DNA of 64,000 nt from an uncultured Ignavibacteriales bacterium (GCA_964489705.1 CAZAZQ010000013.1:7085-71084), one strand, 5' to 3'. Positions 35,246 through 52,834 are shown, counted from the stretch's first letter. Translations and numbers: made by a program. The notes: a model not told the origin generated them from the sequence alone.

Positions 35246-38200
35246 TTATCGGTAGCGGAAGGATTTCTCTCGAAAGGTGACGCTCTTGGCAAACGAGCGA
35301 ACCTGCTCGGCAAACGCCTCCAGTCGGGTATCTTCGCCGGAATCGCGCAGTCCTTCGTAACTGATGTTCAACCACGGGATACCGCCCAAATCCTCCGAGA
35401 TTTTCTTGGACAAGGAACTGACCACCGTGCCGGGCATACAGTTGAACGGCATGGCGTTGACAATCCCCGACACGCCTTCGAAGGTCATCTCTATGGCTTT
35501 CCCGACCGAGAGGATGGCTTCTCCTTTGAAATCGAGAGGAAGGTATCTCGTCGCCAGGTTCATCATTTTCCCGACGGGGTAGTCTTCTTCCAACTGCGCT
35601 AGCCTGGTGAAATACTTGGCGATTTTATGTTCATGCCGACGTTGGATGAAGACTTGCAGGCTGCCGCGGAGAAAATCTTTGAGTCGGCGGTCGCGGAGAG
35701 CATCCCGTTGATAATCAAGAGAAGTGTACATCGGCCATTCGCAGAAAGGTGCCAGCCAGACCTGGAGACCCAGTTTCTCCAGCTTTTCGATGAGGTGGTT
35801 GTTGGAAAAGCGGTTATTGCGAAGGTAGATTTCCCCGACGACCCCCACCAGCGGGAATCTTTCGTCTATCGTCTCTATCTTGAGAAAATCGTTAACGGCA
35901 TCCCGCGCCAACGCTTCGAACGATTCTTCCCGAATCATCGTCCGGCTCAGGCGATGGATGTAATGGTAATAGACTTTTTCCGTTTCGCCCGGATTGACTT
36001 CATACGGACGAGTGTGGTGAAGCAGTTTCATCAGGTAGTCGAGAAAGACCAGCCCTTGCCAGGTTAGTTTGCGGAAAGTGGTGCCGTCTTCGATACCGAA
36101 ACCGGAATAGCCGTCCTTCGAGTTGGGGGAGAAGATGGGCACCTCATGGTAGCCCAGGTCGTCCAACACAATCCGGTGATACTGGCTGTACAACCCGAAG
36201 CGGCACGGACCGTCGGCGCCGGGCATGAAAAAGACGGTACGACTCGGGTCGAAATCCTCGGATTTGATTTTCTTTATCATATCACCGGTGGTAACGACCA
36301 ACGGGAAACATTCCTTGCCGGAAGAGAACTTTTTCCCGTACTCAAGCGTTAATTCATCCGGTTCGTCCAGCACTTCCGCCGTCAAGCCGAAACGCTCGAA
36401 CGCCGCCCGCAAGACGTAGGCATGGTCACACATGTTCGGAATATAGATGGTCTTTTCAAAGGGACGGAAATCGTCGCAGGCGATGTTGAAACTGCTGACC
36501 GGCATACTGAACGTGTAAAAGCGGAGAGAATCGACAAACGCTTCGCAACGGGTAATCAAACCGGCGTCGGCGGAGTGTTCGTCGAGTTCAAGCTGGAGGA
36601 ACGGTTTCCCGTACATGAGCTTGCGGAAGAAGTGGGTGATAAACGAATCGGGACCGCAGCCGAAGGAGGTGATGTAGACGGCAAACAAATTGGGATGCTT
36701 GCGGATGTAATCCCCCGCCGCCAGAATCGATCGGCCATACCGCCAGTACATGTAGGAGTAATCGGCTTCATCATCGGCAATGGGAAGGAAATCGATGGGG
36801 ATGGCTTTGAGTCCCAGCTTGCGGATCTTATCGGGCAACTCCAGGGAGAGCCAGCGGTCATTGCCGTTGTACGGACGGCTGACGATAACCAACGCCTTTT
36901 CGTCCGGCTCCAATTCCTCGAGAATTTTTCGTCCTTCTTCAATCAGGCTCCGCCGGTAGGTTTGATAAGCGCGGAATCCCGCCTCCAGCGCTTTCTTGTA
37001 TTCGCTGTCGGAAAGGTCTAAATCATCCGCCAGATGCTTCATGCGTTGGTGCAGCTCGTTCATATCGGAACTGAAAGAGATGGGCGAATTGAGAAACGTG
37101 ATGTTCAAACTGTCGAAGTCAAAACGAGCCCGAATCGAAGAGCCGACGGATTGGACGTACGGACAGTAGTAGGCGCCGTTGTCGGAATCCTCGTCGTCGA
37201 CCGCCATTTTAATCAAAGCCGGGAGAAAAATGGCATCGACTTTTTTCTCGATGAGGTTGGCGATGTGACCGTACACCATTTTGATGGGGTAGCAGGTTTC
37301 CGCCGTAAAAAGTTCAAGGGCGTCTTCGGCGATTTTCTTATTCGAGAGGTTGGAGTTGACGACGCGGAAGTTCAACGCTTCGAAAAACGCCCGCCAGAAG
37401 GGATAATAGTCGTAAAAGTGCAAGACCATCGGAATGCCGATACGCCCGCGGATGACTTTGGGCTTGGTGAACTTTTGGTATCGTTTGAAAAGGAGCTTGT
37501 GGCGCAGTTTCATGTAGTCTGGGGGGAGTTGCTTTGCGGTCCGTTGTTTGATGTCGTACTTTTCGCAGCGGGCGCCATAGTACAGCGGTTCTTCCCCTTC
37601 GATTTCCACTTTATGGATTTCGCACTGGTTGGCGCAGTCTTCACACACGAACGACTCAATCTCGTAATGCCGTTTGTGCAGGTCAAATCCTTTGAAGTTG
37701 GTTTGGAAACCCGGCTCGGCTATTTTCTCTTTGGCGAGAATTGCCGCTCCGATGGCACCGGTAACGTCATGGTGCGGGGGGACGGTTATCTTTTTCCCGA
37801 GGAGCTTCTCGAACGCCGCCACCACCGCTTTGTTCCACGCTACGCCGCCCTGGAAGAAGATATGGTTTCCTATCCGGCGGTCCCCGACCACTTTGGTGAG
37901 GTAGTTGCTGGCAATGGAATATGCCAATCCCGCCAGTAAGTCATCCTTGCTGGCACCGCTGCGCTGGTGAGCGACCAGGTCCGATTCCATGAAGACGGTA
38001 CACCGTTCGCCGCATCCGACCGGACATTTGGCGTGGAGCGCTTTTTCGCCGAATTCCGTTTCAATCTGGATGTTGAGTTTTTCCGCCTGCTCTTGAAGGA
38101 AAGAACCGGTACCGGCGGCGCAGGCTTTGTTCATTTCGAAGTCGACCACCGCTTGCTTGTCGATGGATATGTATTTCGAATCCTGCCCGCCGATTTCAAA

Positions 38201-39451
38201 GATAGTGTCGACGTTCGGATCGATGTCAATCGCCGCCGTCGCTTGAGCGGTGATTTCGTTGCGAACGACATCGGCACCGACAAAATCCCCGATGAGGTAG
38301 CGTCCCGAGCCGGTCGTTCCCACCGCTTTGACGATGACTCTGTTGCCGACTTCTTCGCCGATTTCCGCCAGCCCGCGGCGTACCGCTTCGATGGGACGCC
38401 CTTCGGTCATCAGGTAACGACGGGCGATGACGTGATTGTCTTTATCAATCAATACCACGTTCGTCGAAAGTGAACCGATGTCAATGCCGAGAAAAACCTC
38501 AAGGTTATCAATGTCTTTCGGTCGCTCAGCTAAAGTAATACTATAATACTTGGAATCGGGATAATCGAACGAGAGTGCATCTCGTCCCGATTCGGGAACG
38601 GTGCGGAATTTCAAGTAGGCGGCGATTCGTTCCGGATCGAAAGATTCAACCACGGCATTTTCTTCCCGCGCCAACAATGCCGCCCCAACGGCGCCGATGA
38701 CGTTATAATGTGGAGGGATGATGAGTTCGTCTTTTTCCAAGTCCAAGATTTCCGTAAAGGCACGAATCATGCCGGGGTTAGCGGCGACCCCTCCTTCGAA
38801 GGCAATCGGCTTGTCGAATTTTTTCCCGCGGGCGATGGAGCTTTTGAAATTCCGCGCCACGGCAAAACACAAGCCTGCCACGATATCGTAATCGGGGGTG
38901 GCGATTTGTTGCAAGTGAATCATGTCCGACTTGGCAAAGACCGAACACCGCCCGGCGATGCGGGGAGGATTTTTCGATTTGAGTGCGAGTTTTCCGAACT
39001 CGTCTTCGATGGATATTTTCAGCCGCCCTGCCTGCTGGTCAAGAAAAGAGCCCGTGCCCGCAGCGCATTGGGCGTTCATAGCGAAGTCGGTGACAATTTT
39101 TTGACTGCTGTCGAGGATGAGCAGTTTGGAGTCTTCTCCGCCCATCTCGATGACGGTGCGAACCTCCGGTATCACGTGAAAGTTGCCGTGAGCGATGCTG
39201 GCGATTTCGCCGTAGAATTTTCCGCCCAAAATCGACTGGGCGGTTTTGCCGCCGATACCGGTCATGCCCAATGTGAACGTTTGATTCCGAAGCTCCGGAA
39301 ATTGCTCCGTGAGAATCTCGTGCAGCCGTTCGAAAGGACGTCCTTGGAATCGGCTGTAGACTTCCTTGACGATGCTGTCCCCGTCCATGAGGACAAGCTT
39401 GACCGAGACGGAGCCGATGTCGATACCTAATGTCGTATGTTTTGTACTCAT
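35246..39451 (-). CDS. Acyl-CoA dehydratase activase fusion (two ASKHA ATPase domains + DUF2229 + dehydratase-like domain)
   Basis: Two GIDIGS..GG(E/Q)DSK..CAAGTGSFL modules, ETCYP, SFGCGPD, LELDEH, PFNCMP. Confidence 0.92.
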   Translation of the reverse strand: MSTKHTTLGIDIGSVSVKLVLMDGDSIVKEVYSRFQGRPFERLHEILTEQFPELRNQTFTLGMTGIGGKTAQSILGGKFYGEIASIAHGNFHVIPEVRTVIEMGGEDSKLLILDSSQKIVTDFAMNAQCAAGTGSFLDQQAGRLKISIEDEFGKLALKSKNPPRIAGRCSVFAKSDMIHLQQIATPDYDIVAGLCFAVARNFKSSIARGKKFDKPIAFEGGVAANPGMIRAFTEILDLEKDELIIPPHYNVIGAVGAALLAREENAVVESFDPERIAAYLKFRTVPESGRDALSFDYPDSKYYSITLAERPKDIDNLEVFLGIDIGSLSTNVVLIDKDNHVIARRYLMTEGRPIEAVRRGLAEIGEEVGNRVIVKAVGTTGSGRYLIGDFVGADVVRNEITAQATAAIDIDPNVDTIFEIGGQDSKYISIDKQAVVDFEMNKACAAGTGSFLQEQAEKLNIQIETEFGEKALHAKCPVGCGERCTVFMESDLVAHQRSGASKDDLLAGLAYSIASNYLTKVVGDRRIGNHIFFQGGVAWNKAVVAAFEKLLGKKITVPPHHDVTGAIGAAILAKEKIAEPGFQTNFKGFDLHKRHYEIESFVCEDCANQCEIHKVEIEGEEPLYYGARCEKYDIKQRTAKQLPPDYMKLRHKLLFKRYQKFTKPKVIRGRIGIPMVLHFYDYYPFWRAFFEALNFRVVNSNLSNKKIAEDALELFTAETCYPIKMVYGHIANLIEKKVDAIFLPALIKMAVDDEDSDNGAYYCPYVQSVGSSIRARFDFDSLNITFLNSPISFSSDMNELHQRMKHLADDLDLSDSEYKKALEAGFRAYQTYRRSLIEEGRKILEELEPDEKALVIVSRPYNGNDRWLSLELPDKIRKLGLKAIPIDFLPIADDEADYSYMYWRYGRSILAAGDYIRKHPNLFAVYITSFGCGPDSFITHFFRKLMYGKPFLQLELDEHSADAGLITRCEAFVDSLRFYTFSMPVSSFNIACDDFRPFEKTIYIPNMCDHAYVLRAAFERFGLTAEVLDEPDELTLEYGKKFSSGKECFPLVVTTGDMIKKIKSEDFDPSRTVFFMPGADGPCRFGLYSQYHRIVLDDLGYHEVPIFSPNSKDGYSGFGIEDGTTFRKLTWQGLVFLDYLMKLLHHTRPYEVNPGETEKVYYHYIHRLSRTMIREESFEALARDAVNDFLKIETIDERFPLVGVVGEIYLRNNRFSNNHLIEKLEKLGLQVWLAPFCEWPMYTSLDYQRDALRDRRLKDFLRGSLQVFIQRRHEHKIAKYFTRLAQLEEDYPVGKMMNLATRYLPLDFKGEAILSVGKAIEMTFEGVSGIVNAMPFNCMPGTVVSSLSKKISEDLGGIPWLNISYEGLRDSGEDTRLEAFAEQVRSFAKSVTFREKSFRYR

Positions 39452-39765
39452 GGGGAATAAATCAACACCTCCCCTTTCTTGTTGGCAAGTAAATAATAAT
39501 CTTATTCCTCCTTCTTGATCGCATCCTTTGATTATGTGTTATACGCATCAGAGGCGACGGCATTGGCATATCTTTGAACAATGCGGAATTTTTTTCATAA
39601 CCGGCATGACCAACAGGGAATGTCCCTTATTCTCAAACGGAAGAACAGGGAGGCGATACCTGTCGTTTCCTGTCTCATTCCATGCTGACGGATGAAAAGG
39701 CAGCCTTCAAGGAATGCTTTAAGGGGAAGCGGTCATCTATTGACACGATGAGGGATGCGAGAGGG

Positions 39766-41922
39766 CTAACGCCACAGTCGGTCGTATAACTGCTTTACGC
39801 TGTCACGCTGTGCCGTGGCGCCGTTTACATCGAGTCGTTGCAGCAAGATCTGAAACGCTTCACGATAATTTTGAGCGATGTCTTTCTCGGTGCGGCTGAG
39901 GAATCGTCTTCCTTCAAAGCCTCGGTAGTCATAGCGACGGAGAAGGTTGTCTTCCAACGGATGGTAATCTTCTCTTTTAGCGGAATCCGGTTCGATCTTC
40001 CATACCAAGCCGTCAAGACGTAAAAGGCTCTCGAGGTCACCGTGGAGTATTCGGTTGGTGGTGGTGTACAACGGCCTGCGCCACTGATTGTGGGCAAGAA
40101 TGTTCAACAACACCTTGTCTTGAATCAATAAGTATTTGTCCGCAATCGTGGGAGTAATAGTTACCGTCACGCTGTTTTTTGAGCCGCCTCCGGCAAAGGT
40201 CACTTCTTTGGATTTCCAGGGAACGACACGGAGATTTTTCAACGAATCCGGCGTCAATGACCAAGGCAGAGCGGGGCGATAGCGCATGGTCGTTTGGAGA
40301 AACCAAACGGTATTCAACAGGGGAAGGTTCAAGACCGCGACGTCATTTCGGTAGTTTTCCACGATTTGCAAATACCACAGGGGGAAGGTGTCGATATCGC
40401 CGCCGGTGAAGAGAACGGCATTTTTTTCACATGAGTCGAGTATGTTGCGCGCATAAGCCAGACAGCCGTAGTTGTGACTTTGATTGTTGGAGCTCCAGTT
40501 AGCATGGAGGGCATTGAGCGGCAGAAGGACGAACAGCCCCGCCGAGGCAAACCAGATGCTGTCGGCATACCGCGGCAAAAGCCGAGTCGTCGCGTTCAGA
40601 ACGGCATAACAGCCTACCCCAAGCCACAATGAGAACACCATGAAAGAAGCGAGAAAATGGCGCTCCATATTGCGAAAGAACGGCTCCGGAACGTTGAGGT
40701 AGACAATAGCAATAAAAGAAGCGCAGAGAAACATCCCGAGCAGCCAGAGGGCTTGCTTGGTCTTTCGGACGAAGTGGTAAATCATGCCGACAAGCCCGAC
40801 GATTACGGGAATACCGAACATTCCGGTGAGTTTGACATTCTCCGTTGCGGCATCGAACCCGATGAAGTTCCAGCCGAAATAGCGGAGATACTCGTGTTTT
40901 ACCTGCCAATCCCAGAAAGGTCCTTTTCGTTGTAAGAGATCGCTGCCGAAAGTTTTGATGCCGAACTGGTGCAGCGTCAGGTAATCCCAAAGGCTTTTGA
41001 AGGTATCAGGATTGCCGAGGTTGAAAACAGGGTGAAGCTGGGCACGGAAGAGGTTCGTCAGTTGAAGCGACGCTCCCAACAGGAAAAGAACAATGCCGCC
41101 CGCCCATATCCGGTAGTCCAAAAGGACCCTGGGACGCCGCAGGAGCACCAGCAAGAGAAACGCCGGTAAAAACAGCAGGTTGCTTCGATGAACACTTATG
41201 TCCAAGCCGAAAAGGAAGGCGGCAAGAAGGAGGTAGTTTCCGGCTCCGGGTTGCTCCGAGCTCTCCCACCAGCGAAAGGCAACAAAGGTGAGAATCGTTG
41301 CCATCAACAGGGAAAAAGCATACGGGTTGGTGAACGTCCCGTGCCGCCAGATGCACGTCGTAAAAGCAAAGCAGAGAGCAGCAATGATGCTTGCCGCTTG
41401 TACCAAGAAGGGGCAAGCGTGGTTAAAAGTCGAGAGAATCCGCACCAAGAGGACGTAGACAATTGCTGCCGATAGGGCGGTGACAATGGCGGTCAAGATA
41501 TGTATTCGTACCGTTGGAGAAGGAATGAAAGAAGCGTATCCTGCCAGCCGCCCGAAAAGCTGGAGCAGGACCGAGCCGGGAGGCGCTAAGATGCCAAGCG
41601 TGTAGCTTCCGATGATGTAGTCGGGGCTGCTCCACCAGGCGGGAGCCGGGTACATAGTAAGGATGTAAACAATAAACGCTCCGGCAAAAACTCCCCACAC
41701 AGGAAAGGAATCCCGTGAAATGCTCCATATTTTTCCCATTTTCTCTTGACGGGGGAGAAGTCCACGCGGAATCAGAACCACGTATCCCAAAATCAGCAGA
41801 ATCGGCGCCACGGTGAGGCTCAGGGCACCGTCGACCGGTGGGGTGCGAAGGGCGACAAATCCAAGCACGAGGCACAGGATGCCCATATAAAAAGAACGCG
41901 TCGGCTTCCGGGTATTTCCCAT
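39766..41922 (-). CDS. Second, divergent DUF2723/TMEM260-like membrane protein
   Basis: LGILAPPG, GDIDTFPLWYLQ, NLPLLNTVW; N-terminal DUF3098-like hairpin. Confidence 0.82.
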   Translation of the reverse strand: MGNTRKPTRSFYMGILCLVLGFVALRTPPVDGALSLTVAPILLILGYVVLIPRGLLPRQEKMGKIWSISRDSFPVWGVFAGAFIVYILTMYPAPAWWSSPDYIIGSYTLGILAPPGSVLLQLFGRLAGYASFIPSPTVRIHILTAIVTALSAAIVYVLLVRILSTFNHACPFLVQAASIIAALCFAFTTCIWRHGTFTNPYAFSLLMATILTFVAFRWWESSEQPGAGNYLLLAAFLFGLDISVHRSNLLFLPAFLLLVLLRRPRVLLDYRIWAGGIVLFLLGASLQLTNLFRAQLHPVFNLGNPDTFKSLWDYLTLHQFGIKTFGSDLLQRKGPFWDWQVKHEYLRYFGWNFIGFDAATENVKLTGMFGIPVIVGLVGMIYHFVRKTKQALWLLGMFLCASFIAIVYLNVPEPFFRNMERHFLASFMVFSLWLGVGCYAVLNATTRLLPRYADSIWFASAGLFVLLPLNALHANWSSNNQSHNYGCLAYARNILDSCEKNAVLFTGGDIDTFPLWYLQIVENYRNDVAVLNLPLLNTVWFLQTTMRYRPALPWSLTPDSLKNLRVVPWKSKEVTFAGGGSKNSVTVTITPTIADKYLLIQDKVLLNILAHNQWRRPLYTTTNRILHGDLESLLRLDGLVWKIEPDSAKREDYHPLEDNLLRRYDYRGFEGRRFLSRTEKDIAQNYREAFQILLQRLDVNGATAQRDSVKQLYDRLWR

Positions 41923-42172: not shown

Positions 42173-42200
42173 AAAAAAAGCGGGAGAGAACTCCCGCTTT
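42173..42200 (-). terminator. Terminator downstream of the MCP gene
   Basis: AAAGCGGGAG-agaa-CTCCCGCTTT with T7 on the minus strand. Confidence 0.85.
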
Positions 42201-42232: not shown

Positions 42233-44389
42233 TCAACTGTGAATCTTAAATCGGGACACCATCTGCTGGAGTCCCTCCGCCTGTCGGTTGAGCTCTTCGG
42301 CGGCGGCGGCGGACTGTTCCGCACCCTTCGCCGTTTCGTCGATAACGTTGGAGATCTGCTCGATGCTTCGAGAGATTTCCTCCGCCGCGGTGGACTGTTG
42401 CTCCGCAGCCGAAGCGATTTGCTCTATCATGTCGACCACCCGCTGGTTCATTGCCACTATTTCATTAAGGCTGTTGCCGGCTTTGTCGGCAAGTTCTCTG
42501 CCCTTGTCGACTTCTTGAATTCCGGCTTCCATCGAATTGACCGCATCTTCGGTTTCGTGTTGGATGCCTTTAATCATGTCGGTGATTTCGCTGGTGGCTT
42601 TGCTGGTGCGTTCGGCAAGTTTTCTCACCTCATCGGCGACCACCGCAAAACCGCGCCCCTGCTCTCCGGCACGCGCCGCTTCAATGGCGGCGTTGAGTGC
42701 CAACAGGTTGGTTTGGTCGGCGATGTCGTCGATGACGCCGATGATTTCACCGATCTGATCGGCGGAGTTCGCCAGCTTGGCAATGGACTCGGCGGAATCA
42801 CGCACCACGTCGGCGATTCGCTGCATCCCTTGAATGGTGTCGCTGACGATTTGTCCGCCGGTCGAAGCGGTGGTGGAAGCGTTCCGGGAAGCGTCGGTGG
42901 CTTCGCCGGCGTTTCGGGACGACTCTACGATAGTCGCGGTCACCTCTTCCACTCCCGAAGAGACCTGGTTAATCTGTTGCGCTTGCTCGTTCACTCCCTG
43001 GGAAAGTTGCTCAGCGGTGGAGGATATCTGAGTAGCGGCGCTGACCAACTCACGAGCGTTATCAGCAAGCTGACGAATCATGCCGGAGAGGTTTTCAATC
43101 ATGATCTTGAAGGAATTCCCCAGCACGTCCTTTTCGGATTTCGGTTTCACTTGGACGGTTAAATCATTTTGAGCAATCCTTTGGGAAGCCTCGGCAATTT
43201 CTTGGATGTAGGTGATAAGTTCCTTTGAAGATGATTGAAGCAATCCGATCTCGTCATCGGAATTGACTTCGATGGTGTGGTCGATTTCCCCCTTGGCGAT
43301 TCCGACGAGAACGGTTGTGACTTGCTTGATGGGGTCGGCAATCTTTTTGGCAAAGAAGTAAAGCAGCCCAAGCGCCAACAAAAGACAAATTACACCAAGG
43401 AGAATTTGTTTCCACATCGCCGAAGAAGCTTTGGCGGTTATTATCTCCTTGGGGACTTCCAGCTTCACTGACCACGGAGTGGCAGTTTGTCCTACGGTCA
43501 AGGGGGTAAACACCCGAAGTTTTTCTCCGGCGAACTCGATGGTTTCCTTCGCATTTTGAATGGCGGCAAGGGTCTTGCTGGTTTTGGCTTGGTCCTCACC
43601 GCGGGCGGCACGAATCGCAATCATATTCTTCCCGACCCGTTCAGGGTGTCCCGTTACGCCGCAGATTGTCCCGTCGTTGCTCAGGATGACCAAGGTTCCG
43701 GTCTTGTCAAAGATATCAAGTTTGTCTGCAATCTCCTGTAGTTTATTCAGCCGCAGGTCAATGCCGGTAATCCCGTAGAAACGTTCGTTGGCAATGATAG
43801 GAGCGACCAAAGAGATAACCAGCTCATTGTTGCCTTGAATCGGATACATGTGGGGATTGACAAGGCATTCTTGCTTGGTCTTTTTGCACAACTCATAAAA
43901 GTTCTTTTCGGATTTAGCATCGTAGCCGATGGTCGGACTCAGGCGAATTTCTCCTTGCGGATTGCGGCTCCAATACGGGATGAACCGCCCGGTCTTGTCG
44001 TGCCCGTCGGTATCGATATAGCCCATATCCATCCCGTCGAAGGCATCCGGCTCCCAGACCGTGTAGACGCCGGCAAATTCGGGATTTCGTTGTAAAGTGG
44101 TTTGCAGGATTCCGTTGGCTTCTTCTCTGCCGATGTCGAGCAAAATCTTTTCATCTTTCACGGCAGAGAGGGTTTGAGCAACCGATTTGGCTGCATCCAG
44201 CGCTTTTTCGAGCTGAAACTTCACGGCAAAGGCATTGGTTCGGGCGGCATTAATTGTGTCATGTTCTGCCGTGTTTATGGCGATTTCCCGCATTGAGAGG
44301 GCGGAGTAGGTAATGATAATCGCCGTGGTAATCAGCAAAGCAAAGCCAGCCCAGAGCGCTATTTTCAATTGCACCGATTTAATTTTCAT
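42233..44389 (-). CDS. Methyl-accepting chemotaxis protein (dCache-HAMP-MA)
   Basis: Two TM helices, [15 protein letters not shown] dCache, [38 protein letters not shown]. Confidence 0.97.
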
Positions 44390-44549
44390 CTGAACACCTA
44401 TCCCTTTGTTGTTCTCTGATTGCGTAACCTCTTTTTTTGTGCTGCGTAGGACAATCAGACAACCCCCACGCAGCATGCTTTATATATGAGCTATTGAAGT
44501 CTGCTTGCTCTTCCTCCCAGAACAGCAAGCAGAACTTCATCCCCTTGTC

Positions 44550-44576
44550 TTATCGGCATTTTCTTCTCTCCGCTGA
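44550..44576 (-). promoter_or_regulatory. sigma28 (FliA)-type promoter of the MCP gene
   Basis: TCAG-N15-GCCGATAA on the minus strand. Confidence 0.65.
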
Positions 44577-44608
44577 TGGGTCAGAAGAGAGAGTCGTTTC
44601 CATTTGTC

Positions 44609-45508
44609 TTATTGAGCCGACGCAAACGCTCCCAGCTTGAGTTCTTTCAGCAGGTTTTCAACCACGGCGTAATTGAGCGGTTTGGTCCAACCGATACATT
44701 TTGCCGCCTTGGCAGCCTGACAGTCGGACGGCATCGTCATTAACGCTTCGGCAACCTGTTTTGCCAGCTCCGGGCTGGTATGAGCGCACTTGGCGAGGGG
44801 CCATTCCGGGTAGAGCTCGGTGCTGTACACAAAAGGAAAATCACCGTCCTGCCGGTTGAGTATCCGGAAATCGGACAGCTTGATTTTTCCTTCCGCCGCC
44901 ATCCGCTCCATGGTATCACTGCGGACGGTACCGACCTCGGCGACTCCCTTGGCAACCATTTCCACAACTTTGTCGTGAGTACCGGCTTCTTTGAACATAG
45001 CGCAGTCTTTTTCCGGGTCGATGCCGTGTTGTTTTAATGTCCGCAACGCCATTTGGTAGCCGCCAAAAGAACTCTTTTTCACGCACATGAAGCGTTTCCC
45101 TTTGATGTCTTCCAAGGTCTTTATGGGACTGTCGGCACGGACGAAAATAACGCCGCCGAATTCCTTGAGCGCTTTCCCTTCGCGGGAATTGATAAGGGTG
45201 GCAATGGCTTCACCGCCGAAACGTTTCTTCATGTCGACGTACATGGAGGAATTTACGAGAAAGAAGTCCACCTTTTTGTCCTTCAAAAACATCGGCACGG
45301 CATCAAACTTCAAGGGAATAATGCGGAATGTTTTGCCGACCTTCTGAGTCAAGTATTCCGCTGTCGGCATCCATTTTGCCAGACACTTTTCCGCGCCGCG
45401 TTTTGCCAGCACGCCGATTTTGACGACGTTGTCGTCGGCAGCGTATCCGAGCGTTCCGAGACAGAAGATCGCCGCCGTGAGAACGGTTACCATGATTGTC
45501 TTACGCAT
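44609..45508 (-). CDS. Periplasmic PhnD-like binding protein, TtrS/ThsS sensor-domain type
   Basis: Signal peptide; IGVLAKRG..W.P, FGGVIF, SSFGGY, HDKVV, STELYPEWP, GWTKPLNY. Confidence 0.85.
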   Translation of the reverse strand: MRKTIMVTVLTAAIFCLGTLGYAADDNVVKIGVLAKRGAEKCLAKWMPTAEYLTQKVGKTFRIIPLKFDAVPMFLKDKKVDFFLVNSSMYVDMKKRFGGEAIATLINSREGKALKEFGGVIFVRADSPIKTLEDIKGKRFMCVKKSSFGGYQMALRTLKQHGIDPEKDCAMFKEAGTHDKVVEMVAKGVAEVGTVRSDTMERMAAEGKIKLSDFRILNRQDGDFPFVYSTELYPEWPLAKCAHTSPELAKQVAEALMTMPSDCQAAKAAKCIGWTKPLNYAVVENLLKELKLGAFASAQ

Positions 45509-45573
45509 AGTCTTTTCTCCTTTTGATATATAACGGGTGAGGGAATTTCCGTCACCCGTCGTGCTTTTTTCTT

Positions 45574-46416
45574 CTATTCACCGGTGGTCGACAAAAGCAC
45601 CCCTTCCGGGTTGAATCCTTCCTCGACCCACCGCTTGACCCCGCCGTCCAGAAAGTAGTAGTCCTGACGCCCGTATTTCTCGAGGTAGTATTGCAACCAG
45701 CGGGTCTGCTTCCCGACGTTGCCGAAAAACAGCAGGTGAGACGTCGGGATGGCTCCTTCGTTTTTCAAGAAGGTGACAAACTCGTCAAGGGTGACTTTCT
45801 TCGTCCCCGGCAAGCGCATGGGAATTTCATTGCGCTCTTTCCGGTCTCGGATGTCAAAGAGGGTGTATGTCCCTTCTTTGACTTTGGCAAGAAATTCCCG
45901 GGGGGAGAGGCAGTGTTCTTTGTATTTCTCCGGTTTTATGAGCTGGTGTTGAGCCGTTTCAGCGGTCATCGGCTCCCCGAAGAATTCCGTCTTTTCCGGG
46001 TGGGTGTTTGCCCATTCGAAAATACCGGCATCGTAGACAAAGACATTCTTGAATCCCCACAGCACCGCCTTCCGGGTGGCTTTGTAGCTCTTGGAACAGG
46101 TCGTGCCGTTGCAGTAGAACACAATCGGACGGGAATCGTCAAGGCCTCTCAACTTGAGAAGATCCGCTTTCTTCATTTTCCCGACCAAGATGTTCTTGGC
46201 GTTTTTAATGTGGATGACGTTGTATTCCACATGGTTCCGAGCGTCGATGATGATAGCCTTATCGTAAATCTTGGCAAGTTCGTCGGTCGATATCGGGGTG
46301 AGTTGCGGGTACTCCTCCCGGAGCGGAAAGTCAGTCGCACCGGCAAATGACACTCCCAGAACCATCAAACTTGCAAGCCCAAAAGCTATCAGTCGGAATG
46401 TGTTTTTTGTTCTCAT
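45574..46416 (-). CDS. Exported tandem rhodanese-domain protein
   Basis: Signal peptide; IIDAR..EY..HIKNA, VFYCNGTTCSKS; second domain lacks the active-site Cys. Confidence 0.88.
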   Translation of the reverse strand: MRTKNTFRLIAFGLASLMVLGVSFAGATDFPLREEYPQLTPISTDELAKIYDKAIIIDARNHVEYNVIHIKNAKNILVGKMKKADLLKLRGLDDSRPIVFYCNGTTCSKSYKATRKAVLWGFKNVFVYDAGIFEWANTHPEKTEFFGEPMTAETAQHQLIKPEKYKEHCLSPREFLAKVKEGTYTLFDIRDRKERNEIPMRLPGTKKVTLDEFVTFLKNEGAIPTSHLLFFGNVGKQTRWLQYYLEKYGRQDYYFLDGGVKRWVEEGFNPEGVLLSTTGE

Positions 46417-46451
46417 CTTTCAAACCCTTCTCACGAGAGGTTCAAGTGTCG

Positions 46452-47681
46452 TTAGAAAGCCACTTGTAAATTCGCCCAGAATTCATCGTTATCGACCGAG
46501 GTTCCTTCTTCGCCGTTGATTTGGTAGTTGAACTGGATTTTCGTGTACTTCCGGTCAATGTAAAGATTGGTGCCTATGGTAATCCGGTCGACTTTATCGC
46601 CGCTGACATCCAGGTTGTTATCCAGCTCTTCATACCGAGCGAGGAGCTGAATGGTGGGCAGGAAAGAAGAATTGGTATTGAATGAGTGTCCCGCCCAGGC
46701 GTACCAGCCGGCTTTCTTGGTGGAGCCGACTTCCGAGTAGATATATTCGGCGGAAACAGTTTCGTTCTTCCAGTTCCAAACCACCGATCCGCCGTACGTC
46801 GTAAGGTCTTGCTTCAACGAGGCGGTATCGTTGGTCTTGCCGACGAGAGCGTTCCCGGCAATGGAGAACATCTTGGCAAGTTTGAACTCGGCTCTGCCGA
46901 CGACGTTTTTATCGTTGTTGACATCCGAGGTATTGATGCCGGAACCGTTGAACAGACCGGCGGAGAAGACCACCCCGAAGTTTTTATTGAACTGATTCTT
47001 ATAGGTGATGCTGGCGCCGATGTCCCGGTCGGTCCCCAGGCTTTTTGCTCTTGAGGTGTTCACAAACGGCAGCGCCGTCGCTGAAAGCAAAAATTCCGTC
47101 CCGAACGGCGGTTTGTACTGACCGAAGTTGAATGCCCAGTGCGGATTGGGGCTCAACGAGAGCATTCCGTCGAGGAGCTTCGGTGATTTGGCGAATTCCG
47201 CCATAATCTTGATGGTAGCGTATTGATTCAATCGTCCTTTGACGGCTAAACGAGCGCGCTTTGATTGAAAAGTAGAGCTTGCATCGTCACCGAGTTGATT
47301 TTGGTACTGCCCGTGGACGAAGCCCGTAAGAGAAATTCTTCCGTGAGCGATGCCAGCAATATTTTTGGGCCGGTTGGCATCAACCTTTTTCGTCTCTTGC
47401 ACCATTCCTTGGAGCTCTTGAACGACGTTTTCCAAGTTGATGGCGAATTCGTACCACGGATCCCGCTGCAAGTCGGCAGCGCTCGGTTGTCCGTTTATTT
47501 CCGCGTACTGTTTTCCCATACGGTCCTTGTACGGGTAGTTCTGCTTCAACACTTGAATGGAAGCGTTGAGCTTGGAGAGCGCTTTCAGGACACTGTCGTA
47601 ATCCTGCGCTTGGGTACTTGTTCCGGTCGTCATAGCCACCAGTCCAAATACCGCCACCATGATGAGTGACACCTTTCTCAT
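46452..47681 (-). CDS. OprO/OprP-like anion-selective porin
   Basis: Signal peptide, coiled-coil N-terminus, KRARL, FGQYKPPFG, DRDIG, LFNGSG, ARYE, terminal QVAF. Confidence 0.82.
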   Translation of the reverse strand: MRKVSLIMVAVFGLVAMTTGTSTQAQDYDSVLKALSKLNASIQVLKQNYPYKDRMGKQYAEINGQPSAADLQRDPWYEFAINLENVVQELQGMVQETKKVDANRPKNIAGIAHGRISLTGFVHGQYQNQLGDDASSTFQSKRARLAVKGRLNQYATIKIMAEFAKSPKLLDGMLSLSPNPHWAFNFGQYKPPFGTEFLLSATALPFVNTSRAKSLGTDRDIGASITYKNQFNKNFGVVFSAGLFNGSGINTSDVNNDKNVVGRAEFKLAKMFSIAGNALVGKTNDTASLKQDLTTYGGSVVWNWKNETVSAEYIYSEVGSTKKAGWYAWAGHSFNTNSSFLPTIQLLARYEELDNNLDVSGDKVDRITIGTNLYIDRKYTKIQFNYQINGEEGTSVDNDEFWANLQVAF

Positions 47682-47800
47682 GTTATCCCCTTTCATATAG
47701 TAGGTGTTTTTGAAATGTTGGTGTGCTTTCTATATCTCTCCCATCCTCCTCGGTGAACTTTGCCCCCGAGTCCGAAAGTGGATGCCCTCGTTTACATTAC

Positions 47801-47827
47801 ATTTCGGCTGAATTGATGTTTGCTTTA
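47801..47827 (-). promoter_or_regulatory. sigma28 (FliA)-type promoter of the porin operon
   Basis: TAAA-N15-GCCGAAAT on the minus strand. Confidence 0.65.
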
Positions 47828-48007: not shown

Positions 48008-49453
48008 ATGAGCATCGTCGAGGTGAGGAAAGCTGCGGTGGCGGGGATGTTTTACCCCGCCAGCCCGGTCGAGTTGAGCAAGACCATCGCCGGTTTGTTC
48101 GCCGAAGTGGAGAAGAAGCCCATCTCCGGCAAGCCGCTTGGTCTGATTGTACCTCATGCCGGGTATCTGTACTCGGGAAAGACGGCGGCGTATGCGTACA
48201 AGTTGCTGGAGGGAGAACAGTACGACACGGTGGTGGTTGTTTCTCCTTCGCATACGGTTTTCTTTCAAGGTTCGTCGGTTTTTCAGGGCGACGGGTACGA
48301 AACCCCGTTGGGAGTGGTGGAAATCGATAAAGAGCTTTCGGAAAAAATCGCTTCAATTACCCCAACCGTCTACTTTTCGAAGATGGGACATGCCAGCGGT
48401 TCGACGCGGGGAGAACATGCTTTGGAAGTCCAACTCCCTTTCCTCCAAGTCGCGCTTCAAAAATTCAAACTGGTGGCGATTGTCATGGGCGATCAGGAAG
48501 AGGATTCGGTACGGACGTTAGGGGAAACACTCGGGGCGGCGTTGAAAGGCACCAACAGTCTCATGGTCGCTTCCAGTGACTTGTCTCATTTTCATCCCCA
48601 ACGGGTTGCTCAGCGGCTGGACAGCACGATTAGAACCGCGGTGGAAAAGTTCGACCCTGACTTGCTGCTGGAAATTCTCTCGACCGGCAAAGGGGAAGCC
48701 TGCGGCGGCGGACCGATGGCAGCGGTGATGATGGCGGCAAAGCGGTTGGGAGCGAAACGCTCGTATTTTCTCCACTACACGACCTCCGGGGAAACGACCG
48801 GGGATTTCAACGAAGTGGTGGGATATCTTTCCGCCGTAATACCCATCGAGAAAGTAAAAGCATCTCAGCCGGAGGAGGTCGGAGCTCCGGCAGCACGCTT
48901 GAAGAAGAGGACGGGGTTGACCGAAGAAGAGAAGCGCGCCCTTTTGAACATCGCCCGTGACGCCATCAAAGCCAAACTAATGGGGCAGCCGTACGAGCCG
49001 CCGCACATTGAGAGTCTCAGCGCAGTGAAAGGTGCTTTCGTAACCTTAAAAATTCACGGCAATCTGCGCGGCTGCATCGGGCAAATCCGAGGCTACCAGC
49101 CGTTGTACCAAACTATCGCCGACATGGCGGTAGGAGCGGCATTTGAGGACCCTCGTTTTCCGCCGTTGACGAAGGAGGAGTTCGAACAGTTGGAATATGA
49201 AATCTCCATTTTGTCTCCGCTGGAACGGGTGCATGACATCAGCGAAATTGAAATCGGCAGGGACGGGCTGATGATAAAGCTTGATCTTCACTCCGGCTTG
49301 CTGCTCCCGCAGGTGGCAACCGAGCATGGCTGGGATGTCATTGAATTTCTCGAGCAAACCTGTTTGAAAGCCGGTCTGCCCAAAAACAGCTATAAAGACA
49401 AGAACGCCGAAATATACAAGTTCTCCGCCGAGATTTTCAGCTCAGAAGAGTGA
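48008..49453 (+). CDS. amrB: AmmeMemoRadiSam protein B (MEMO1) - protein A (AMMECR1) fusion
   Basis: VAGMFYP, PHAGYLYSG, EHALEVQLPFLQ, SSDLSH; then GAFVTL..LRGCIG, DPRF, LLPQV. Confidence 0.93.
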   Translation: MSIVEVRKAAVAGMFYPASPVELSKTIAGLFAEVEKKPISGKPLGLIVPHAGYLYSGKTAAYAYKLLEGEQYDTVVVVSPSHTVFFQGSSVFQGDGYETPLGVVEIDKELSEKIASITPTVYFSKMGHASGSTRGEHALEVQLPFLQVALQKFKLVAIVMGDQEEDSVRTLGETLGAALKGTNSLMVASSDLSHFHPQRVAQRLDSTIRTAVEKFDPDLLLEILSTGKGEACGGGPMAAVMMAAKRLGAKRSYFLHYTTSGETTGDFNEVVGYLSAVIPIEKVKASQPEEVGAPAARLKKRTGLTEEEKRALLNIARDAIKAKLMGQPYEPPHIESLSAVKGAFVTLKIHGNLRGCIGQIRGYQPLYQTIADMAVGAAFEDPRFPPLTKEEFEQLEYEISILSPLERVHDISEIEIGRDGLMIKLDLHSGLLLPQVATEHGWDVIEFLEQTCLKAGLPKNSYKDKNAEIYKFSAEIFSSEE

Positions 49454-49628
49454 CTTGTGGTAAATCCGTGAAGAAATTGTGAAGGGGCATAGGAAAGAGC
49501 TTTTCCTTTGGCATGTTATGGGGGAGGGGAATAATTCTTTCTGTCGCAAGCTGTTTGAGTTCTCCTTGAAATAAAGCGCTTCTTTCAACAAACTTGTCTC
49601 ATGACGACCAATTGCTTACCTTCAGCTC

Positions 49629-50633
49629 ATGTCGCCGCAAGAAGCAAAGAAAAGAAGTGTCCTTATAACCGGCGCCAACGGATTTGTCGGTTCCCGATTG
49701 TGTCGGAAATTTGTTGCCGAGGGATTTCGGGTCATTGCGGGCGTTCGCAAAACCGCCGATCTGTCACTTCTGGACGGGGTGAACGTGGAATACCGCTACG
49801 GCGATGTCCGCAAACCGGAAACATTGGAAAAGATGGTGGCAGGGGTTGAATATGTTATCCACAATGCCGGGGTGGTGAAAGCCAAAAAGCCGTCGCTTTT
49901 CTATGACGTGAACGAAAAGGGAACAGCGGCTCTTTTTCAAGCCGTTGCAGCCGTCAATCCTCAGGTAAAAAAAGTGGTCTACATATCATCGTTATCCGCC
50001 GCCGGTCCTTCTCGTGACGGTCGGTTGATAAAAGAAGATGATACGCCCCACCCCATCAGTGTTTACGGCAAATCAAAGTTAGCCGGAGAACGGGCGGCGC
50101 TTTCTTTTGCCGACACCTTTCCCGTTGTCGTCTTGAGGCCGTCGGGAGTGTACGGACCGGGCGATAAAGAAATCTTTTCCTTCTTCGAAACGGTCAATCG
50201 GAGATTCAAACCGCTTCTGGGCAACCCTGAACGGAAGCTGCAACTCATCCACGTCGATGATTTGTGCCATGCTGTTTTCTTGGCGGTCACACGTTCGGGT
50301 AAGTCCGGTGAAGTGTATTTCATTGCAGAAAATAGGGCTTACTCCCTACGGGAGCTGGTTACCCTTCTGGAAAAGGGAGCCGGAAAGAAAGCGGTGCCGG
50401 TTTTCATTCCCGGTTTTGTGTTTATGGCGATATCTTGCCTCTCGGAGTTCAGTTTCAAGTTGGTCGGCGCCACGCCCATGTTGACCCGAGAGAAAGCGCG
50501 GGAGCTGTTGGCGTCGTGGGAAGTGGATGTCTCCAAGGCGCAGCGGGAACTGGGCTTTGAATCACAGATTCCTTTTGAACAAGGAGCACGGGAAACGTAC
50601 CGCTGGTACCGAGAACAAGGATGGTTGAAATGA
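49629..50633 (+). CDS. NAD-dependent epimerase/dehydratase (extended SDR)
   Basis: TGANGFVG, YGKSK, RPSGVYGPGD. Confidence 0.92.
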   Translation: MSPQEAKKRSVLITGANGFVGSRLCRKFVAEGFRVIAGVRKTADLSLLDGVNVEYRYGDVRKPETLEKMVAGVEYVIHNAGVVKAKKPSLFYDVNEKGTAALFQAVAAVNPQVKKVVYISSLSAAGPSRDGRLIKEDDTPHPISVYGKSKLAGERAALSFADTFPVVVLRPSGVYGPGDKEIFSFFETVNRRFKPLLGNPERKLQLIHVDDLCHAVFLAVTRSGKSGEVYFIAENRAYSLRELVTLLEKGAGKKAVPVFIPGFVFMAISCLSEFSFKLVGATPMLTREKARELLASWEVDVSKAQRELGFESQIPFEQGARETYRWYREQGWLK

Positions 50634-51049
50634 TTTCTTTTTCATTGATAGGCTATTGTCTGCTTGCCGGAGGAGCGTACTTGCTGTTGATAAGTCTCGT
50701 GATGGAAGCGCTCGGGAAAAGGCTGAACGTTCTCAGGGATATTCCTGCCGATATGGTAGAACCCTACGGCTGGCCGACTTTCCTTGTCGGCTTTTTCATG
50801 GAGATGTTGTTTTTTGTTTTCATCCCGACTATCGCCTACAGCTCTTTGTATCTTATCATTCCCCTTTCCGGGGTGCGAACCGGCCTGGCGGGAGCACTGC
50901 TGGCATTCACCTTAGGGGTGATACCGGCGCTCATGATCTTTTCCTTACGAATCCGCTTGTCGATGCTCTACGTTTTGTTCTACCTTTTGAGCATACTGCT
51001 GAAACTGGGCGGATGTTTGGCAATCATCGGATATGTGTATGCATTATAG
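50630..51049 (+). CDS. Hypothetical 4-TM membrane protein
   Basis: ATGA overlap with the epimerase stop; four hydrophobic segments. Confidence 0.7.
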   Translation: MISFSLIGYCLLAGGAYLLLISLVMEALGKRLNVLRDIPADMVEPYGWPTFLVGFFMEMLFFVFIPTIAYSSLYLIIPLSGVRTGLAGALLAFTLGVIPALMIFSLRIRLSMLYVLFYLLSILLKLGGCLAIIGYVYAL

Positions 51050-51163
51050 ACAGGAAAAAGAGCGGGGAGAATCCGTTTCTCGATATTGGACGGATTCGGG
51101 GTATGGAACGTTGTTAAGATGAGAGTATCTCTCACCGCATATTGAGAAGAGCCGGAGTTTGTC

Positions 51164-52834
51164 GTGCGATTGTGTTGCCTCGTGGTTCGACTTATTATCT
51201 GTTTGGTTCTTGCCTTTACATGTGTGAAAGCGGGTGAGAACTCGTGTTCGTCAGTGATGGAGGGGTATACCCGCCGGTTTGACGGCTACCGCGGATGGCT
51301 CATCGACAGCGTCATCGTCGACAATAGGAACATCTTCGATACGGAATGTCCCAAGTACCGCCATTTCGCTTTTTCTCTTGCCAACAAGTTCCATTACAAG
51401 ACCCGCCGATCAATTGTCCGGCAGGAGATTCTCTTGAGGTCCGGCGAACCGTTTTCTCCCGAGTTGGCGGAGGAAACGGCTCGGAATTTACGTCAGCGCC
51501 TGAAAATTTACGATGCCTGGGTAAGCATCAAGCCGCTTTCAAACAGGCGGGTCAAGGTACGGGTGGTCACGATTGACGAGTGGAGCCTTTCCGGGGGAGT
51601 GGACATCAAACGGGACGGAAACGAAACCCGGTATGAGTATTCCGTAACGGAGAAGAACCTCCTCGGGAGGAATATCTACCTTTCGGCAAGCTACTACGTT
51701 CAATCTTCTTATGAAAATTATTTTCAAGCGTCTTTGACGGAAAAAAGATTGTTCGGTTATCCCCTTGCTTTGAGCGCCGTCTACAACGGCGATCCTTTGG
51801 GCACTTTCCGTCAAGTTAACCTCAGCCATCCTTACTATAATTTGGAGCAAACCTCTTCCTTTGGGGTGAGTGTGGCAACGACGGCGGGGCGGCGGGAAAC
51901 CTGGAACGATTCGGCGCTGGTAGGACAGGCTGAGTATGAAGGAGATATCTTTTCCCTCTACGGCTCCTATCGCACCGGGACATACACCCGAAAACTATTG
52001 ATAACACCGCAATATACTTACCGTTTCGAGCGAACCTTCAACCTGACGGTCAATGCCGACAACTATAATGACAGCCTTCTGGCTCAGGAAAGCTTTGCGG
52101 CTGATTCCCTGTATCATCAACTGGGGGGGCAATTGCTCTTTTTGAACCAGAATTTTATCACTTTGCAGCGGATCGACGGGTACGGCTACACCGAAGATTT
52201 TGTTCTGGGAACGGCTTTGGGAACGGATTATGCCCGGGCGTTTACCGCCAACTTTACCGATTACCTTTTCGACCGGGTCTCGATTCGTGCCGCCGAGCGG
52301 TTCAGAGTGAAGAAGCATCTTTTTTATATCATGTTTCAGCGTCACCTTTGGTTTCGGGGCAGCAGTCAACTGCGGCAAGCCAACCAGTTTCTCACGAATT
52401 ACTATTACTTTCCCCGGGAATCTCTCACCATAGCCGCCCGAGGGATATACGTTTCCGACGACGCCGGGGATGTTGACCGCCTCTCGGTGGGAGGAATGGC
52501 GGATATTCGAGGGTATGACAAGGTCTTTATGACAGGGAATCGGAAGGCGGTATTTAACGTGGAAAGCCGTTTCAATCCTCGGCTTGAGTTTTTGACGGTG
52601 CTGGTCGGCGGGGTCATCTTTGTGGATGCCGCTCGTTCATGGAAGTACGACGAGCCGTTGACCTTCCGGGACTTCCGATTCAGCGTCGGCTTCGGGCTGC
52701 GTCTTGCTCTGGAACGTCTTTTGAAGAACAAACTATTGCGTTTTGATGTCGCTTATTCCGATAAAAACGGCTGGCAGCTTTCCTTCGGTACCGGTCAATA
52801 TTTCCTTTCCTTCAGTAACTCTTTTTTCCCTTGA
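51164..52834 (+). CDS. Omp85-family/POTRA-domain outer membrane protein
   Basis: NKFHYKTR..ETARNLR POTRA, EKNLLG, GGMADIRGY, LRFDVA. Confidence 0.8.
   Translation: MRLCCLVVRLIICLVLAFTCVKAGENSCSSVMEGYTRRFDGYRGWLIDSVIVDNRNIFDTECPKYRHFAFSLANKFHYKTRRSIVRQEILLRSGEPFSPELAEETARNLRQRLKIYDAWVSIKPLSNRRVKVRVVTIDEWSLSGGVDIKRDGNETRYEYSVTEKNLLGRNIYLSASYYVQSSYENYFQASLTEKRLFGYPLALSAVYNGDPLGTFRQVNLSHPYYNLEQTSSFGVSVATTAGRRETWNDSALVGQAEYEGDIFSLYGSYRTGTYTRKLLITPQYTYRFERTFNLTVNADNYNDSLLAQESFAADSLYHQLGGQLLFLNQNFITLQRIDGYGYTEDFVLGTALGTDYARAFTANFTDYLFDRVSIRAAERFRVKKHLFYIMFQRHLWFRGSSQLRQANQFLTNYYYFPRESLTIAARGIYVSDDAGDVDRLSVGGMADIRGYDKVFMTGNRKAVFNVESRFNPRLEFLTVLVGGVIFVDAARSWKYDEPLTFRDFRFSVGFGLRLALERLLKNKLLRFDVAYSDKNGWQLSFGTGQYFLSFSNSFFP

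Follow-up and report, generated by a model that had tools for sequence, protein, structure and literature searches.

The 64,000-nucleotide stretch of DNA analysed here, hereafter called the window, comes from an uncultured Ignavibacteriales bacterium (GCA_964489705.1 CAZAZQ010000013.1:7085-71084; positions are counted from its first letter). Four co-oriented open reading frames (ORFs) on its minus strand fill positions 42233 to 47696 and encode a porin, a rhodanese, a free solute-binding protein (SBP) with a PF12974 domain, and a methyl-accepting chemotaxis protein (MCP) (Table 1). ORF map and Pfam scans agree on the four genes named by an initial annotation made from the sequence alone, which had seen in them a sigma-28-controlled candidate system for the chemosensing of sulfur oxyanions. 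Porin, rhodanese, and SBP each start with a hydrophobic, signal-peptide-like N terminus (judged by eye). For the porin, the second ATG at 47681, which stands behind the ribosome-binding site AAGGGGA, is the likelier start, and for the MCP, whose ORF extends to 44476, it is the ATG at 44389 behind AAGGGA. The genes scanned on either side (35246-41922 and 48008-52834) include no ABC permease, ABC ATPase, or histidine kinase, in line with the earlier claim. The complete four-gene set is known from two genomes, that of the window (G000; 2.86 Mb, 97.9% complete) and G154; a neighborhood survey returned the set itself from these two only, whereas the linkage of SBP and MCP genes extends much further.

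Table 1. Features of the porin-rhodanese-SBP-MCP region (window positions)
Feature	Position	Strand	Remarks
Sigma-28 (FliA)-type promoter-like match	47801..47827	-	TAAAG-N14-GCCGAAAT; ~100 nt before porin start
Outer-membrane porin	46452..47696	-	Porin_O_P family, 414 aa; Pfam and ORF map
Exported tandem rhodanese-like protein	45574..46416	-	280 aa; PF00581 and ORF map
Free periplasmic PF12974 (PhnD-fold) binding protein	44609..45508	-	TtrS-type sensor family, 299 aa
Sigma-28-like element in SBP-MCP spacer	44550..44576	-	Perfect -10 GCCGATAA (44550-44557), weak -35 TCAG
Hairpin	44495..44539	-	15-bp stem, no U tract; between the GCCGATAA -10 and the MCP start
MCP	42233..44389	-	718 aa from likely start; transmembrane helix (TM) 1, dCache, TM2, HAMP, MCPsignal; Pfam
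Periplasmic dCache ligand-binding domain of MCP	43415..44293	-	Amine-motif residues intact
Intrinsic-terminator-like hairpin and T run	42177..42200	-	Past MCP stop

The SBP is an orphan binding protein of the TtrS sensor type without a cognate Phn-type ABC transporter. It matched Pfam Phosphonate-bd (PF12974) with 165.7 bits, and the TtrS model (NF040750) ranked first among the NCBIfam models with 138 bits (cut-off, 750), the match covering only model positions 8 to 264, that is, the sensor part. The generic phosphate/phosphonate SBP model scored 108.6 bits, just below its cut-off of 112, the PhnD model (TIGR03431) 92.7 bits (cut-off, 261.1), and a model of a putative selenate SBP 59 bits. With a reference TtrS, encoded on an E. 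coli plasmid next to ttrBCA and ttrR, the SBP has 28% identity (E 1e-34) and the motifs IGVLAxRG..W, (S/A)FGGY, STxLYP(E/D)W, and W..P in common; the motifs previously ascribed to TtrS are thus indeed present in a ttrBCA-linked TtrS. A profile of the SBP family gave the real TtrS 157.5 bits and E. coli PhnD 29.3 bits. In a maximum likelihood tree of 67 rows, rooted on E. coli PhnD and calculated without ThsS, the TtrS group lies within a well-supported clade of domain-fused (kinase-fused) sensors (100/96), the window protein groups with its two nearest orthologues (100/100) within the free-standing forms, and E. coli PhnD forms a very long outgroup branch. A quick tree of 152 rows gave an identical partition. 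Hence, the phylogeny places the SBP with the TtrS-type sensors and not with PhnD.

The SBP is single-copy in G000, and neither PhnE (TIGR01097) nor PhnC (TIGR02315) had a match above cut-off in this 97.9%-complete genome; the best ABC candidate found is a GlnQ/GlnP-type amino acid transporter. The claim of the initial annotation that the protein is not tied to a transporter is supported by its family as well as by this search. Two assignments were rejected. The SBP is not a PhnD transporter subunit, being below the TIGR03431 cut-off, without PhnC/PhnE, and separated in the tree from PhnD as the outgroup; and it is not a full TtrS kinase, since its score is under the cut-off and the protein ends at residue 299 without HisKA or HATPase domains. 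A model of the SBP calculated with AF2 (AlphaFold2; predicted local distance difference test, 94.1) has the two-lobe fold of binding proteins. Its Foldseek neighbors are PtxB, HtxB, PhnD1, ArrX, XAC2383, AioX, and PhnD (E 1e-15 to 1e-20 for PtxB, HtxB, ArrX, AioX, and PhnD), and sequence scores to solved relatives are low (PtxB, 40 bits; ArrX, 32 bits; XAC2383, 23 bits).

The linkage of SBP and MCP genes is conserved across lineages. We examined 32 other free-standing SBP homologues with ORF maps and Pfam scans, namely, 5 genes from four named loci or loci of metagenome-assembled genomes, 2 from the window's own phylum, and 25 from a second phylum (401 genomes), the latter from 24 usable loci of 26 (L044 and L045, contig-end fragments, were dropped). 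An MCP gene is the immediate neighbor of the SBP gene in 17 of the 32, and in several relatives the two genes overlap or stand 30 to 68 nt apart. Among homologues of at least 47% identity, 14 have an adjacent MCP gene and 4 have none, one of the 4 (L029) being cut 406 nt downstream. Because MCP genes number just 2, 3, 7, 12, 17, and 29 in the six genomes counted, we estimate the chance of such an adjacency at less than about 1% per gene. The loci are not all independent (e.g., L034 and L042, on the same contig, belong to one locus that has been rearranged), and the MCP-linked SBPs are spread across several well-supported clades in both trees. ABC permease and ATPase genes adjoin the SBP gene in only 1 of the 32 (L038, 40% identity). 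In the window's phylum, a PF12974 domain occurs in 15 of 285 genomes and is free only in G000, G007, and G154, each time next to an MCP gene. At L032, the pair lies within a CheA-SBP-MCP-MCP-CheR cluster, and at L033 (G656:C58, 6013-10429) one dCache MCP gene stands between two different PF12974 genes (47% and 36% identical to the query). The elements of L033 are split in G610:C1 into two places 27 kb apart (L034 and L042).

Gene fusions point the same way. In longer homologues of about 50% identity, PF12974 heads histidine kinases, GGDEF/HD-GYP proteins, SpoIIE phosphatases, and MCPs, and fusions of PF12974 with MCPsignal account for 10 of the 120 longer homologues listed. With adjacency in 17 of 32 cases and such fusions at hand, the linkage to MCPs anticipated by the initial annotation is well founded. 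The protein found here is free, predicted to be exported, and genetically coupled to an MCP, and in these respects it resembles the binding proteins of binding-protein-dependent chemoreceptor systems. A complex prediction for SBP residues 25-299 with the MCP dCache domain gave a score of 0.10 (mark, 0.32) and counts neither way. As to the fusion MCPs themselves (P0142, P0143, P0156, P0164-P0166, P0181, P0189, P0197, and P0211), they are about 750 to 790 aa long with PF12974 at the N terminus, the named source of P0142 being Waterburya agarophytonicola, and they form a single clade that also contains P0206 (613 aa, PF12974 alone on record). Two other loci deserve mention. Just downstream of the SBP-MCP pair of Desulfosarcina alkanivorans (L013, 11742-13199), genes for an MttB-family (trimethylamine-type) methyltransferase and an RpiR regulator are found; the MttB neighbor may be a coincidence or a hint of an amine connection. 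At L039 (G663:C43, 6001-10650), a distant free SBP (40% identity) is adjacent to, and divergent from, a 1018-aa molybdopterin oxidoreductase and is possibly a reductase-linked member of the family.

The second accessory protein, the rhodanese, matched PF00581 with 90.3 bits across two stretches. Its first domain has the loop FYC102NGTTC107SKSY and its second domain is Cys-less and has the sequence GKQTRW, which together with the N terminus agrees with the exported rhodanese with a CNGTTC loop described before. Both the domain and a catalytic-loop cysteine being present, it is a predicted sulfurtransferase. Its top NCBIfam matches are selenoprotein-type rhodaneses, all under cut-off; the match to Sud (1QXN) is weak (24.5 bits), and a search of the ESM Atlas returned generic "rhodanese-related" clusters only.

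Like the SBP, the rhodanese family is linked to MCPs, and this independently of the SBP. Within the 285 genomes of its own phylum, the rhodanese occurs only in G000 and G154, each time in the four-gene cluster. The 401 genomes of the second phylum contain 4 homologues, 3 of which have a co-oriented MCP gene directly downstream (L125, L126 [Desulfosarcina alkanivorans], and L127); the fourth (L124) is cut by a contig end. The downstream gene was readable in 17 of 31 metagenome loci, and here an MCP gene follows, without an SBP gene, in 5 of 8 rhodaneses with at least 39% identity (L075, L080, L082, L083, and L085) and in 0 of 9 with less. The signal peptide, the motif FYCNGxxCxKS with its two cysteines, and a second domain that has GKQVxW but no Cys recur in all 19 rhodaneses aligned. 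At the N terminus, those linked to MCPs have the signature (D/K)(F/Y)PLR and the others GFPGR. That the family is MCP-linked by itself in other genomes and metagenomes backs the inclusion of the rhodanese in the chemosensory unit. The linkage of rhodanese and MCP was not part of the first reading of this DNA; it is new here and apparently undescribed in the literature searched. On a metagenome contig (L077, 1767-4468), a small helix-turn-helix gene separates the genes of two paralogous tandem rhodaneses (42% and 46% identity to the query), and no MCP gene is nearby.

The MCP is one of only two in G000. Solved structures matched by its dCache domain include 9HEH (121 bits), 3LIB (115 bits), PctD, TlpQ, McpU, 7PSG, and 6D8V. 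The amine motif, whose residues in PctD are R103, D133, F188, Y189, an M215-type hydrophobic residue, S217, and D235 according to the available part of PMC10589655, is complete: aligned to PctD (7PRQ, its chain numbering mapped onto the published one by an offset of 11), the corresponding residues of the window MCP are R, D, F, Y, V, S, and D. The resemblance to amine receptors, entered as a caveat in the initial annotation, thus extends to the full motif. Across 70 homologues, R56, D86, and Y133 of the dCache domain are invariant and D179 is nearly so; with 4384 representative clusters at E <=0.001, the family is a large one. The membrane-distal pocket probably binds an amine directly, and the receptor would then integrate two inputs.

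Rhodanese-linked and SBP-linked MCPs are members of the same sensor-domain families. The dCache domains encoded in the window and at L075, a locus that has the rhodanese only, share 37% identity (E 7e-74), and the small periplasmic domains (about 150 aa) of rhodanese-linked L082, L085, and L125-L127 match those of SBP-linked L023, L024, L026, and L032 with 25 to 34% identity (E 1e-10 to 1e-25). Because both partners accompany the same receptor families, SBP, rhodanese, and MCP can be regarded as one functional network, and this is the strongest argument for taking the window cluster as a unit.

The porin met Pfam Porin_O_P with 34.5 bits (cut-off, 20.9) over profile positions 10 to 163 of 370 and is, as a member of this OprO/OprP-type family, a predicted anion porin. 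No meaningful match to solved structures was obtained by sequence, and the sole NCBIfam match is a weak one (25 bits) to ExtI, the porin of a selenite/tellurite operon. Orthologues precede the SBP gene in G007 (59% identity) and G154 (39-57% identity), and a porin beside the SBP is confined to the three related genomes G000, G007, and G154, with no rhodanese in G007. At L012, the ORF upstream of the SBP has neither a Pfam family nor a tblastn match to the window porin. G154 has an extra gene for a 4HB-type MCP directly upstream of the porin, and its full set (L021, G154:C13:32500-49500; 7982-10990) is damaged, possibly by decay or by an assembly error.

FliA probably couples expression of the cluster to the flagellar regulon, judging by promoter-like motifs. 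The pattern tested for the regulon (TAAA-N15-GCCGATAA-type) has 2 matches in the window versus 0.16 expected; the second, TAAAGCTTCATACTTGCCTGCCGAAAT at 7613-7639 on the plus strand, is not followed within 300 nt by the start of an ORF of 60 or more aa. Of the 17 matches in G000, one lies immediately before fliA itself, and the downstream genes are mostly non-flagellar: nine ORFs there encode one CheY-like receiver, one GGDEF protein, one weak GNVR match, and six proteins without a Pfam family. Upstream of the main flagellin gene stands GCCGATGT, and GCCGAAAC belongs to the second MCP gene; both MCP genes have a -10-like element. At L075, GCCGATAG precedes the rhodanese gene. The sigma-28 control that had been proposed is plausible, given the matching motifs and the presence of fliA in the genome, but the motif is not conserved in the relatives G007, G154, and L012. 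The promoter proposed for the MCP alone has a perfect -10 element but a weak -35. The hairpin behind it (ΔG -31.3 kcal/mol, z -3.55, a stability equaled in 2 of 200 shuffled sequences) is possibly a 5' untranslated region or processing structure.

In sum, our data point toward an undescribed way of sensing a small anion by chemotaxis. We read the region, at a probability of roughly 55%, as a chemosensory module whose transmembrane receptor takes input from accessory proteins in the periplasm. In our model, a small, multiply charged oxyanion would enter through the anion-type porin and be held in the SBP cleft, which may be lined by K36, R37, N86, S147, H178/D179, and R196. The liganded SBP would then dock on the periplasmic domain of the MCP and alter signaling by CheA, as MBP does with Tar and PstS with CtpL. 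The rhodanese, with its two cysteines, would serve as a co-sensor that either converts the stimulus or is itself loaded (e.g., persulfidated) and read by the same MCP. An amine at the membrane-distal MCP pocket could be an independent second input to which the accessory proteins add, as MBP does for Tar. As for the cleft, the pocket residues were deduced from conservation and secondary-structure position only: K36, R37, N86, N107, S147, H178, D179, and R196 are invariant or nearly so and stand at strand ends and helix N termini of both lobes, which suggests a small, multiply charged anion as ligand. Residues K36, N107, G119, S147, H178, and D198 are 82 to 100% conserved in the MCP-linked free SBPs and mostly 72 to 95% in the fused core family.

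A number of observations weigh against this model. Free SBP genes without an adjacent MCP gene are almost as frequent as those with one (15 of 32), and the SBP-MCP spacer in the window measures 132 to 219 nt and has its own promoter-like element, compared with overlap or 30 to 68 nt in the relatives mentioned above. No match to the sigma-28 pattern was found ahead of the porin genes of G007 and G154 (the relatives L022 and L021 included), nor ahead of the SBP gene in L012, and in G154 the SBP match is interrupted by a TAA and the porin is divided between ORFs of 138 and 266 aa. The amine motif being complete, the MCP could work without any partner. The MCPs that accompany SBPs have at least four unrelated types of sensor domain, and therefore, a single conserved docking surface is not obvious. 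No fusion of the rhodanese to a longer signaling protein was found, which is weak evidence. Finally, all three kinases of the Ttr group replace the six conserved pocket residues by M/Y/F, S, S, A, A/V/M, and C, respectively, which are more hydrophobic, and no Psr, Phs, or Ttr reductase was found among 54 neighbors of kinase-fused relatives (18 loci, of which 17 were mapped and L112 left out; 54 of 79 neighboring ORFs scanned; NCBIfam, E 1e-30).

The last two points bear on the ligand. Since all six pocket positions are replaced in the Ttr-group kinases, tetrathionate is not expected to be bound and is an unlikely ligand of the SBP; a pocket identical to that of the Ttr clade was rejected for the same six differences. 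The sulfur oxyanion named as ligand in the initial annotation remains a candidate. The neighbors of the kinase-fused relatives are mostly response regulators, kinases, and c-di-GMP proteins. There are hints of sulfur: one kinase-fused relative adjoins cysK and cysE, and an Azospirillum kinase that is 37% identical to the SBP adjoins a ttrBCA-like reductase cluster. On the other side, in the part of Daeffler et al. (PMC5408782) available to us, only 31 of 154 PhnD-like kinases are located near thiosulfate or tetrathionate genes, 13 near those of thiosulfate and 18 near those of tetrathionate. A sulfur ligand is plausible, and the rhodanese tilts the odds toward sulfane sulfur or thiosulfate. 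Reduced sulfur (thiosulfate, polysulfide, or sulfane sulfur) is the most likely class of stimulus, and this is the weakest step of the model. Only tentatively do we go further and imagine that the SBP and the two-cysteine tandem rhodanese are interchangeable or cooperating accessory sensors of the same chemoreceptor families in anaerobic bacteria of the sulfur cycle, serving taxis to sulfane sulfur or thiosulfate, with the rhodanese as a first enzyme-type, persulfide-loadable co-receptor. If this holds true, the system represents half of the chemoreceptor repertoire of G000.

The same architecture could serve another chemistry, with the SBP sensing an oxyanion of phosphorus, arsenic, or selenium (phosphite, pyrophosphate, arsenate, arsenite, or selenite being candidates) and the rhodanese-fold protein acting on that element. 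Some rhodanese-fold proteins are arsenate reductases, and the closest solved structures of the SBP are PtxB, HtxB, PhnD1, ArrX, and AioX, the last two being sensor SBPs themselves; XAC2383 is close as well, its entries being bound to ATP or chloride. The porin is of a phosphate/pyrophosphate-porin family and found its one model, a weak one, in ExtI; the rhodanese leans toward selenoprotein-type models, all below cut-off; and the SBP did match the putative selenate model. However, the sequence scores to PtxB and ArrX are far lower than that to the TtrS model, and the window genes scanned include no ars, arr, aio, ptx, or ext genes, which leaves these ligands rather unlikely in our view. A plain amine receptor, with the porin, rhodanese, and SBP as a separate periplasmic unit for handling sulfur or anions that happens to lie alongside, would be in line with the alignment of every amine-motif position to PctD, the match to the Methanosarcina kinase 3LIB, and the long spacer and own promoter-like element of the MCP gene. 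We hold it to be unlikely, for the adjacency of SBP and rhodanese genes to MCP genes recurs across lineages and MCP types, often with overlap or the short distances given above, PF12974-MCP fusions exist, and G000 has only two MCP genes.

Last, the SBP might be an ordinary transport subunit with its membrane partner elsewhere or unrecognised, its place beside an MCP gene being due to a joint regulation of uptake and taxis like that seen for MBP or PstS. Most of the known SBP-chemoreceptor pairs in the available text of a review (PMC8050422) are indeed built on transport SBPs, and the distant homologue L038 does adjoin ABC permease and ATPase genes. With 31 of 32 free homologues lacking adjacent ABC genes, no PhnC or PhnE above cut-off in a nearly complete genome, and sensor domains of kinases, cyclases, and MCPs as the nearest relatives beyond the free forms, we regard this as highly improbable.

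A module of periplasmic accessory proteins and a chemoreceptor, as we prefer to read the cluster, has precedents. Binding-protein-dependent chemoreceptors include Tar-MBP, Trg-GBP/RBP, Tap-DppA, Tsr-LsrB, CtpL-PstS, TlpB-AibA/B, and BasT-BasB and CosT-CosB of Halobacterium, as compiled in the available part of the 2021 review (PMC8050422), whose table marks BasB as a signaling-only SBP and which also includes AioX-AioS. In these systems, a binding protein in the periplasm delivers the stimulus to a transmembrane MCP, as the SBP would do here. In contrast, the pairs in that part of the review are mostly formed by transport SBPs and contain no PF12974 protein, rhodanese, or dedicated porin. TtrS and ThsS have the same family of sensor domain, and TtrS motifs recur in the SBP; the PhnD-like periplasmic domain is the likely ligand site of PhnD-like kinases according to the available part of Daeffler et al. 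(PMC5408782). The window protein differs from them in being free, without a kinase and with an MCP as output, in the six pocket positions, and in having no reductase operon nearby. Orphan PF12974 proteins that bind the ligand within a two-part periplasmic receptor are known from AioX-AioS, ArrX, and XAC2383-XAC2382, but these have low sequence similarity to the SBP and signal to a kinase or a diguanylate cyclase, whereas the output here is chemotaxis.

The ligand-binding domain of the window MCP is by sequence a member of the dCache_1AM amine receptors (PctD, TlpQ, McpU, PacA, McpX, and M. mazei 3LIB) and keeps their motif residues; none of these has an accessory periplasmic protein described for it in the available parts of the literature searched. 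The polysulfide-sulfur transferase Sud and PspE are, like the window protein, exported proteins of the rhodanese fold. What sets the window protein apart from Sud, PspE, and ExtH-ExtI is its tandem structure, in which domain 1 has a C-x4-C loop and domain 2 no Cys, and its linkage to MCP genes and not to a reductase or a cytochrome conduit. A rhodanese beside a porin recalls ExtH-ExtI of Geobacter, of which only the ExtI model was matched. A literature search whose scope did not extend to supplementary datasets found no description of a PF12974-MCP pair or a rhodanese-MCP pair.

Few systems of indirect chemoreception via binding proteins are known, and nearly all of these, as far as the available literature goes, are based on transport proteins; a conserved PF12974-MCP pair without a transporter adds a new sensor family to these. 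The pair also offers an easy experimental route to the ligand of a very large group of TtrS-like sensor domains (about 50% identical) in kinases, cyclases, phosphatases, and MCPs. The linkage of rhodanese and MCP suggests that a protein of the sulfurtransferase type can act in the perception of a stimulus, and such a role would bear on how sulfur- and metal-reducing bacteria locate their electron acceptors.

The genes on either side of the cluster are unrelated to it and encode a double activase of the BcrAD/BadFG type, a TMEM260-like glycosyltransferase, a Memo-AMMECR1 fusion, an HpnA-like epimerase, and an Omp85-family protein. The activase (35246-39451, minus strand) is 1401 aa long and combines two ATPase modules of the BcrAD/BadFG activase type with a DUF2229 domain. 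Divergent from the porin operon, positions 48008-49453 on the plus strand encode the 481-aa fusion of the AmmeMemoRadiSam system proteins B (Memo) and A (AMMECR1).

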